Of a DNA stretch of 64,000 nt, positions 55,624 to 56,354 are shown in pieces. The stretch comes from a virus. Its lineage: Duplodnaviria; Heunggongvirae; Uroviricota; Caudoviricetes. Position numbers and translations under genes: made by a program. The notes beneath the pieces are model-generated. The model saw only the letters and a list, made by a program, of their open reading frames with translations, made no database searches and was not told the DNA's origin. The DNA lies in the IMG/VR virus record IMGVR_UViG_2939121850_000001. One strand, written 5' to 3'. Position 1 is the first letter of the stretch; the number at the start of each line of letters is the position of its first letter.

Positions 55624-56354
55624 TTATTAACCTCATTACTGGTTGGGAAATAAGGTTGCGGTGCCGGGTGCCTCCCGGTGTCCTTTAGCTGGTTATCCAC
55701 CGTGAACGGGTCCACAGATGTCATAAAAGGAACAATATAACCATTTCCCCGCGTGCGCTTAGCCGCATTCACCGCAACGGAAAGAGCATTCTTGGTGGAC
55801 CTGTAGATTGGGATATGAACCCGTTACAGGAGAATGCTCTTACCTGTTACGTGCTCCGTTTCGTGGAGCTAACGGCGGGTGATCGGGCCGCACCAGACTG
55901 GACTTATTTCAGCGTTATGCTCATGCCAGAGAATCAAACTGTGATGGTCGGTGCTGAACTCCGACACAGGGTTGTAGCAAGCCCCGCAAAGCGCGCACTA
56001 CTGTAGTTGCGGCACATCAGCCTGTGCATTCACCACAATGTTGAGAACACTGGTTGTCACGCTGCAACGCAACATTTATTCGTAGATTGGGATATGACCC
56101 CGTTACGCCAGTGTTCTCAACGTTGTAGTGCCGGTTACGGTTCCGGCCAGGCCTCTTCCTCAACGGGGTGTTCTCCATACGGACTACCGTTTATTGGTCG
56201 TTCCTGCGGTTTATGTTGTGAAGCCAGATGCTTATCTTCTGGTTGCTTCAAAGAGCTGCACTTCATCACAACGGTAAGGGTACTTCGTAGGGATTCGAAC
56301 CCTCTGCCAAGCACGGCGATCTCCGACGTCGCAAAATACCCTTACCTGTTGTGT

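Follow-up and report, generated by a model that had tools for sequence, protein, structure and literature searches.

RNase III sites are found in the early transcripts of phage T7 and in the lambda N leader, and in the E. coli metY-nusA-infB operon a hairpin cut by RNase III stands immediately after metY. Both RNase III and RNase E take part in processing DicF, and RNase P processes the tRNA-like C4 RNA of phage P1. Mimics of a tRNA anticodon arm are known from RNA leaders such as the thrS operator, and from viral tRNA-like structures. The STnc100/PasD family (RF02076) comprises prophage-borne, Hfq-associated small RNAs (sRNAs) (bioRxiv 10.64898/2026.05.13.724894). Here we analyze a 64,000-nucleotide stretch of Caudoviricetes DNA (IMG/VR record IMGVR_UViG_2939121850_000001; hereafter the window), in which an original prediction, made from the sequence alone, had described three hairpin elements with tRNA-like loops. 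The stretch is that of a P1-like phage and is 98% identical to P1 across the kilobase that holds the hairpins.

The hairpin region belongs to the ∼1.5 kb untranslated leader of the C1-controlled ban operon, on the minus strand between tRNA-Thr and tciA. In P1 coordinates, the minus-strand order is C1 operator Op72 and promoter Pban, a “dicF-like” region, trnA (Asn) and trnT (Thr), followed by the hairpin stretch, tciA, tciB, tciC, trnI (CAU), and ban. No sigma-70-like consensus promoter was found on either strand of the Pban-to-tciA interval, so the hairpins are read most simply as part of the untranslated leader.

Leader hairpins and their relatives in other phages

Four hairpins, H1 to H4, lie on the minus strand of this unit and are very probably conserved, strand-specific RNA structures. 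Each is marked by an inverted repeat, a stable fold, and a match to R2, a covariance model built from non-P1 phages only (alignment A3). Across the whole 64 kb, R2 found exactly four sites, namely H1 (60.9 bits, E 1.4e-12), H2 (41.3 bits, 1.1e-7), H3 (27.7 bits, 2.8e-4), and H4 (25.2 bits, 1.2e-3), with the E-values of such home-made models being rough, and each minus-strand match scored above its plus-strand mirror.

H1 (79 nt; 55773..55851) is built on inverted repeat I3 (55779-55792 / 55831-55844, 14 nt, 93% complementary), reads 5' CGUAACAGGUAAGAGCAUUCUCCUGUA-(tip)-UACAGG...AGAAUGCUCUUUCCGUUGCG 3', and folds as minus-strand RNA at −28.2 kcal/mol (z −6.3). H2 (∼100 nt; 56031..56130) is built on I1 (56031-56053 / 56108-56130, 23 nt, 91% complementary) and folds at −49.2 kcal/mol (z −6.6); its lower stem, CACUACAACGUUGAGAACACUGG / CCAGUGUUCUCAACAUUGUGGUG, carries a tip composed of the motif arm discussed below and a second small hairpin. 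H3 (87 nt; 56267..56353), on I8 (56273-56285 / 56334-56346, 13 nt, 92% complementary), begins 3 nt past the CCA of tRNA-Thr and folds at −37.4 kcal/mol (z −4.6), with lower stem CACAACAGGUAAGGGUAUUUUG / CGAAGUACCCUUACCGUUGUG and an interior that holds a T-arm and a small hairpin with loop GUCGGAG. None of 200 dinucleotide shuffles was as stable as H1, H2, or H3. I3, I1, and I8, 13–23 nt long and 91–93% complementary, are the three inverted repeats of the original prediction. H4 (81 nt; 56712..56792, with an outer stem extending to 56705-56799), which was absent from it, is built on I2, folds at −48.8 kcal/mol (z −5.4), lies upstream of tRNA-Asn, and is a fourth family member with no tRNA-like tip.

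Two shared sequences had been noticed among the hairpins, and both are present. The loop common to the first two spans 25 nt (55803-55827 and 56082-56106) with 24 of 25 bases identical, and no other copy exists in the 64 kb even at 3 mismatches (0 expected). The motif ACAGGTAAGRG occurs exactly at 55837-55847, 56339-56349, and 56778-56788, always on the minus strand, the third copy belonging to H4; tolerating one mismatch raises the count to 5, where 1.0 would be expected. The ends of H3 that had been taken for an acceptor-like pairing are the shared lower stem of the family and form no tRNA acceptor stem. Aligning P1, P7, D6, Ro157, and about 100 P1-like IMG/VR loci, we found that the hairpins constitute one repeat family with the common base 5' (C)ACAACAGGUAAGRGyAUU ... 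rUGCyCUUwCCGUUGyG 3' and interchangeable interiors.

The family extends well beyond P1. The 3' arm of H1 and the next 30 nt (GUUGYG-GUGAAUGCGGCUNAGCGCACGCGG) recur in many unrelated phages, and in ST64B, phiES15, and a Klebsiella siphophage a long CACAAC/GUUGUG-closed hairpin lies directly 5' of that sequence. An IMG/VR scan for TTGTGGTGAATGCGGCT returned more than 120 loci, which together with loci fetched earlier yield ∼26 distinct hairpin types of 46–163 nt, whose lower stems differ in sequence yet stay paired and whose tips are unrelated. Cognate arms pair at −27.0 kcal/mol on average, compared with −17.5 kcal/mol for non-cognate arms, and in 21 of 27 types the strand with the GGUGAAUGC module gives a more stable fold than its complement does (mean difference −4.5 kcal/mol, Wilcoxon p = 2e-4). 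The family is defined by a CACAAC/GUUGUG closing helix, a covarying lower stem of 12–20 bp, and an exchangeable tip. The original prediction of structured RNA elements with tRNA-like pieces on the transcribed strand of the tRNA/tci/ban unit is therefore borne out, and the hairpins are conserved in P1-like and lambdoid phages alike.

In SfV, Stx2a_WGPS2, ST64B, and the ST64B-like contig L118, the elements are flanked by the cI-like repressor region on one side and by the first early-left open reading frame (ORF) on the other, which in lambda is where nutL lies. In SfV-, ST64B-, and Stx2-type lambdoid leaders the family adjoins STnc100-like modules. As in P1, the family thus occupies the untranslated start of a repressor-controlled early operon. 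Lambdoid carriers have no tRNA genes nearby (none within several kb). The element is absent upstream of yfdP in the CPS-53 prophage of E. coli K-12. No Rfam family matches the hairpins, and for neither the family nor its initiator-tRNA-like tip did we find an Rfam model or a published description; a literature search, which did not cover subscription journals, returned no paper on RNA processing in the P1 ban operon or on phage mimics of initiator tRNA.

H1 is directly followed by an STnc100-like module. This segment A (55657..55777, minus strand), the 5' leader of tciA, is closed by UGCGGUG/CACCGCA and overlaps the last bases of the H1 3' arm. It matches RF02076 at 39.9 bits (E 8.7e-7) over model positions 31-147 only, under the gathering score of 47 and with the hairpins unmatched; its 120.7 bits against our own model R1 arise by construction, since segment A is in the training alignment. 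A 26-base 5' block and the 3' block CACCGGGAGGCACCCGGCACC of segment A are conserved across phages, most of their bases being invariant. The modules of ST64B and phiES15 score 35–41 bits against RF02076, again under 47, and the Klebsiella locus has no STnc100 match at E ≤ 0.01. Between H2 and H1, segment B (55940..56038, minus strand) is a weak, degenerate copy of the module and the second-best match to R1 in the region (14.5 bits, E ∼0.003, a rough value). That all four inter-hairpin segments are STnc100-like was rejected, as segments C and D gave no significant match to R1. A 66-nt part of segment C just 3' of H3 (56215-56280; UGAUGAAGUGCAGCUCUUUGAAGCAACCAGAAGAUAAGCAUCUGGCUU) is 95.5% identical in three Klebsiella phage-plasmid records of ∼110–120 kb.

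The last bases of each hairpin 3' arm, UGYG, have an alternative partner in CRCA, the 3'-terminal sequence of the module that follows. In alignment A1 this closing helix of the module, UGYGGUG/CACCRCA (55773-55777 with 55657-55663), shows one covarying pair, and the hairpin base and the module base contend for shared nucleotides; a switch between the two pairings is conceivable. A bona fide STnc100 (144.7 bits) is found in phage PPyecE_EH1910 (L232, 2604-2856), between a tciA/TerB-tciB pair and the esterase gene yjhS, where the anti-sRNA AgvB on the opposite strand abuts the STnc100 terminator.

Among P1-like phages, the site beside tRNA-Thr exists in three forms: a T-arm-bearing interior (window, P1, and D6), an unrelated interior with no T-loop (P7 and Ro157), and an interior with another T-arm-like hairpin, GUAGAG-UUCGACU-CUCUAC. 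Two of these forms stand in tandem in many genomes. H1 of Ro157 has lost exactly 13 nt, CGGGUUCAUAUCC. SJ46-type genomes and the loci L011, L031, L034, and L064 lack 279 bp between the two 25-nt direct repeats, a deletion that leaves a hybrid of the H2 5' half and the H1 3' half, and in L015 the 5' arm of H3 is fused to H1, joining tRNA-Thr directly to H1. By these swaps and losses, the stems are the constant part and the T-arm-like tip is dispensable, and the repeats also serve as joints for recombination. A family hairpin comes directly after genuine tRNAs in P1, P7, and D6, among them the extra tRNA-Ser of P7 and D6. P1-like phage-plasmids have eight hypervariable regions, of which the tci region is one (PMC9603915).

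The tRNA set itself varies: Ro157 carries an extra tRNA-Tyr(GUA) between Asn and Thr, the additional tRNA of P7 and D6 is tRNA-Ser(UGA), and some IMG/VR contigs seem to have a tRNA with another anticodon arm at the Asn position. The D6 record annotates its tRNAs on the wrong strand.

tRNA-like loops at the hairpin tips

All three loops of the original prediction had been read as T-loops, a reading that holds for H3 and fails for H1 and H2. We defined a T-loop as seven nucleotides, U54-U55-C56-R57-A58-N-N, closed by G53-C61 on a stem of 4–5 bp. H3 contains AGGGUUCGAAUCCCU at 56289-56303 on the minus strand, where the loop reads AGGGTTCGAATCCCT and the sequence gives a canonical T-arm, AGGG-UUCGAAU-CCCU, with a G-C-closed UUCGAAU loop. 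In H1 and H2 (UUCAUAU and GUCAUAU) position 58 is U, with no A58, and across homologues of these loops “position 54” varies (U, G, C, AC, or AU) and the length is 7–8 nt. The GGGTTC ascribed to the second loop is in the window GGGGTCATATCCC.

The tips of H1 and H2 fit a different part of a tRNA. They correspond to the two copies of direct repeat D4 on the minus strand, GUA-ACGGGUUCAUAUCCCAAUC-UAC in H1 (55803..55827) and GUA-ACGGGGUCAUAUCCCAAUC-UAC in H2 (56082..56106). In H1 a GGG/CCC stem closes the 7-nt loop UUCAUAU in a U33-CAU-A37 pattern (GGG-UUCAUAU-CCC), and H2 reads GGG-GUCAUAU-CCC. Both therefore show the features by which we defined a look-alike of the initiator-tRNA anticodon stem-loop, namely three consecutive G-C pairs closing a 7-nt loop with U33, a CAU anticodon, and a purine at position 37, a definition that establishes resemblance only. 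Across phages the tip consensus is ACGGG-N(1-2)-UCAU-NN-CCC-N-AUC. Because the bases that are invariant across homologues are the U-C-A-U between GGG and CCC, the pattern is that of an initiator anticodon arm and not that of a T-loop.

Homologues support the structure as well as the sequence of this motif. The helices beneath it covary between phages (CCUGUA/UACAGG, GGCGGC/GCCGCC, UGAUGU/GCAUCA, and GGAUG/CAUCC); 85.6% of cells are paired, all six flanking pairs have changed on both sides, and none of 500 shuffles reaches the covariation score. The lower stems of the family covary as well. As the motif scans of IMG/VR, with 15 specified bases, return many chance matches, only matches in a family-like context were used. 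GGG-N(1-2)-UCAU-NN-CCC was also counted in 120 loci that had been collected independently of the motif. These hold 95 copies, where ∼4.7 would be expected, and 91 of the 95 sit at one fixed place, 210–250 nt downstream of the anchor, in a second family hairpin 3' of the terminator of the STnc100-like module. The two-hairpin tip of H2 is the architecture common to the lambdoid element.

The commonest lambdoid tip form, CGGGCUCAUAACCC, is identical at 14 of 14 positions to the anticodon stem-loop of an E. coli tRNA-Met gene present in four copies in 5,425 of 5,426 genomes. This gene has a C1-A72 mismatch and three G-C pairs, which are established hallmarks of the initiator tRNA. In the tRNA(CAU) encoded by the window itself, the loop is CUCAUAA and the GGG/CCC stem is lacking. 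On the strength of the motif in homologues, the 14/14 identity, and this difference from the resident tRNA(CAU), the H1 and H2 tips are P1 versions of an initiator-anticodon-arm look-alike rather than T-arms.

T-arm-like tips are not confined to H3. A hairpin of type c and two hairpins in L118 also fit the T-loop definition, and such hairpins are enriched in family tips (4 in 2,500 nt compared with 0.13 in shuffles; 0 of 2,000 shuffles reach 4). The L118 element (7039-7169) is a family hairpin whose tip holds two canonical T-arm-like hairpins, CUGG-UUCGAUU-CCAG and GUCCG-UUCAAUU-CGGAC, and its 12.9 kb locus contains no tRNA gene. The idea that T-arm tips were copied from neighboring tRNAs was rejected, as L118 has two such tips and no tRNA gene within 12.9 kb.

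None of the hairpins is a tRNA gene. In the window ARAGORN identifies three tRNAs only (CAU anticodon, Thr, and Asn) and none on the hairpins, and Infernal at E ≤ 10 gives no tRNA match on any hairpin. When H3 is searched alone against Rfam, its 13–15 nt T-arm part matches tmRNA and similar models (tmRNA at 6 bits), and a mascRNA match is non-significant (14.2 bits, E = 1). A tRNA gene or pseudogene was thus rejected, as the two programs find nothing past the H3 T-arm and no residual cloverleaf; the remnants of degraded tRNA genes that had been suggested are not recognizable by either. The genuine tRNA genes of the unit are tRNA-Thr(UGU) (56355-56430, minus strand) and tRNA-Asn(GUU) (56433-56508, minus strand), found by ARAGORN and by the Rfam tRNA model at 72.4 and 74.5 bits, respectively.

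Proposed processing stems, possible tRNA mimicry, and alternative readings

The explanation that we favor as a whole, at an even balance of probability, is that conserved leader hairpins serve as processing or insulating stems that display tRNA look-alikes. The double-stranded lower stems would be RNA-level modules, probably cut by RNase III, and would part tRNAs, STnc100-like leader RNA, and downstream mRNA from one another. They might also keep the long untranslated transcript folded and so protected from Rho. The same stems would scaffold the look-alikes, with a loop-proximal initiator anticodon arm (GGG / N-U-CAU-N-N / CCC) on H1 and H2 and a T-arm fragment on H3.

A role in RNase III-type processing alone is a tentative proposal. 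It is suggested by near-perfect helices of at least 20 bp placed right after tRNAs and right before leader RNAs. The predicted helices comprise 22 bp with one mismatch in H2, 20 bp in H3, 11+6 bp in H1, and 8+7+9 bp in H4, and we counted as present the structural hallmark of RNase III substrates, about two turns (≥20 bp) of near-continuous double-stranded RNA.

Several observations weigh against the favored explanation. The plus-strand mirrors of H3 and H4 score only slightly lower with R2 (23.0 and 22.3 bits), and the lower stems keep more sequence than pairing needs, with rUGCUCUUyC in 17 of 27 types, which could mean a sequence-specific (boxA-like) role or merely shared ancestry. A paired flank was one of the grounds on which the sequences behind the covariation signal had been selected. 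Compared with the initiator arm, the P1 motif copies deviate at 32, 38, and 42; they match it at 13 of 16 positions, fewer than the lambdoid copies do, and reproduce only 3 bp of its stem. Neither tip is essential in every copy: Ro157c2YLVW and L086 have lost the H1 motif, and P7 and Ro157 have no T-arm version of H3. Cleavage of the hairpins, any effect on stability, and any binding partner are putative.

An alternative, unlikely in our estimation, makes the tip the functional part. Enterobacterial temperate phages (P1-like phage-plasmids and SfV-, ST64B-, and Stx2-type lambdoid phages) would display an initiator-anticodon-arm mimic on a hairpin that is only a scaffold, presenting it early in infection as a decoy or ligand for a factor that recognizes this arm; T-arm tips may belong to the same toolkit. 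Candidate partners are VapC-type PIN nucleases (Shigella, Salmonella, and E. coli), for which the tip could be decoy or sensor, the 30S P site with IF3, and MetRS. VapC-type nucleases cleave tRNA-fMet in its anticodon stem-loop in Shigella and Salmonella (PMC7180214), and cleavage of tRNA-fMet by VapC is reported from the bacteria that the carrier phages infect (Shigella, Salmonella, and E. coli). Consistent with mimicry are the identity of the commonest tip form to the tRNA-fMet anticodon arm over 14 nt, the invariance of G29-31, U33, C34-A35-U36, and C39-41 across diverged phages with covarying flanking helices, and the fixed place of the motif in early repressor-controlled leaders, where anti-defense functions are often encoded. 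At least one copy is kept in all five P1-like reference phages inspected, although one copy can be lost. The resemblance was recognized after the fact, it covers the loop and 3 bp only, with U at 38 and U or G at 32 in the P1 copies, and we found no paper describing such a mimic.

That the hairpins are evolutionary debris seems improbable. They would then mark the borders of shuffled tRNA, sRNA, and gene cassettes in a hypervariable region, as scars of recombination or as portable homology, and their tips would be functionless fragments of dead tRNA genes. Such an origin would agree with the hypervariability of the tci region in P1-like phage-plasmids (PMC9603915), the recombinants seen (the 279-bp deletion and the L015 fusion), interiors swapped on constant stems, the varying tRNA content (Tyr in Ro157, Ser in P7 and D6), and the enrichment of T-arm-like hairpins in tips (4 compared with 0.13 per 2,500 nt). 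Neutral scars, however, are not expected to covary or to favor the transcribed strand, as these stems do; the tip motif and its flanking covariation are kept in lambdoid phages with no tRNA genes within several kb, and neither Rfam nor ARAGORN finds a residual cloverleaf.

Still less probable is an antitermination or anti-Rho signal, in which hairpin and STnc100-like module would together act in the manner of nut, rrn, or put to allow read-through of terminators and the long leader. The 3' arms, in H1 and many of its relatives, hold a boxA-like GCUCUU(U/A)C followed by GUUGUGGUG at the position of lambda nutL, a label that rests on what we take to be the boxA consensus (GCUCUUUA-type, single-stranded), and 17 of 27 types have UGCUCU in this arm. 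The elements also have a pL-leader position in lambdoid phages, with no N gene annotated in the inspected SfV and Stx2a_WGPS2 regions, and intrinsic terminators lie inside the leaders (57000-56975 in the window; after the STnc100-like module in phiES15 and L118). Yet the boxA-like bases are buried in a near-perfect helix and are replaced with compensating changes in many types (ST64B, phiES15, and L114), and the only predicted terminator of the window lies upstream of all four hairpins. The put and immunity region of HK022 gave no STnc100 or related match, a weak test because Rfam has no matching model for put. We therefore hold the boxA/nut idea to be improbable, the bases being paired and not conserved across the family.

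Two ORFs annotated in P1 on the plus strand over the hairpins, upl (55815-56006) and plp (56007-56384), are open in the window and carry the 25-nt repeat in the same reading frame. That they encode proteins and the repeats are incidental is highly improbable and was rejected, since their products match no Pfam family, variable sites show no third-position excess (3/3/1 in upl and 7/5/8 in plp), plp overlaps tRNA-Thr and remains intact in no more than 24 of 101 P1-like loci, and the region is replaced or rearranged in P7, D6, SJ46, and Ro157 (different sequence or deletions); upl and plp are considered spurious. Neither ORF is annotated in the inspected P7, D6, and Ro157 records, and no consensus promoter was found on the plus strand.

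Other features of the window and comparison with known systems

An intrinsic-terminator-like hairpin lies within the “dicF-like” region at the start of the ban-operon leader (57000-56975, minus strand; UGCCCAUCUUCGGGUGGGCG followed by U7), and a transcript reaches the tRNAs and ban only by reading through it. Rfam does not detect DicF in this terminator region at E ≤ 10. Further upstream, the dmt methyltransferase ORF (57181-60222, minus strand) encodes 1013 aa compared with 754 aa in P1, with Pfam Hint, LAGLIDADG, and intein-splicing domains inserted into its C5-cytosine methylase part. It reads GGTP|CFTAGHM...VVHN|CQAFSIAG, an intein at the catalytic PCQ motif, and dmt of Ro157c2YLVW is likewise long. 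Elsewhere, an RNA-OUT element (IS10/Tn10-type antisense RNA, 97 bits; 28650-28719, plus strand) lies ∼400 bp away from two RNAs of the immunity region, the C4 antisense RNA and isrK (29125-29314, minus strand); C4 itself occupies 29125-29212, away from the hairpins.

By this analysis, ∼600 bp of P1, a phage in very wide use, would move from the doubtful ORFs upl and plp to structured RNA, and the P1 ban-operon leader is linked to the early-left leaders of the serotype-converting phages SfV and SfII, ST64B, and Stx2 phages, which are medically relevant prophages. The analysis defines a widespread RNA element that is not represented in Rfam, and its repeated stems explain why this region of P1 is a recombination hot spot. 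A functional look-alike, if true, would be a new kind of phage tRNA mimicry, possibly a new route of anti-defense or translation control, and would give a way of asking how phages deal with toxins that attack initiator tRNA.

Among described systems, the RNase III hairpins of T7, the lambda N leader, and metY-nusA-infB share with this family near-perfect helices of about 20 bp or more that lie between functional RNAs or before the first early ORF, in some cases directly after a tRNA. Unlike known RNase III sites, the family has a CACAAC/GUUGUG closing helix, STnc100-like neighbor modules, and tRNA-like tips. The RNA directly 3' of H1 resembles STnc100 in matching the family core, GGUGAAU...CACCGGGAGGCACCCGGCACC (39.9 bits), whereas the hairpins lie outside the Rfam model and the P1 module has no terminator and runs into tciA; upstream of the bona fide STnc100 of PPyecE_EH1910 the sequence is AU-rich, and this RNA has a terminator of its own but is not accompanied by a family hairpin. 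With lambda nut, the boxA-boxB-boxC signals of rrn, and HK022 put, the elements share a pL-type leader location, a boxA-like 3' arm, and small hairpins nearby, but here the boxA-like bases are paired and not conserved in the family, no N is annotated in the inspected regions, and similarity to put is not detectable.

The comparison with tRNA-related systems is similarly partial. YrlA (RF02553) and P1 C4 also carry tRNA-like substructures on a long stem, although the hairpins have no Rfam match to either. The unit resembles those of phages whose tRNAs evade tRNA-targeting defenses in carrying tRNA-Asn, tRNA-Thr, and tRNA(CAU), with Tyr or Ser in relatives, but the hairpins lack a cloverleaf and an acceptor end and could act only as fragments or decoys. 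With the thrS operator and viral tRNA-like structures, the family shares a hairpin that imitates one particular tRNA in its anticodon loop and the stem next to it; here, however, the tRNA imitated is the initiator, and the look-alike stands at the tip of a long phage hairpin and has candidate ligands only. Structured RNA elements in phage leaders are known in kind, and those described here bear an unusual conserved tip.

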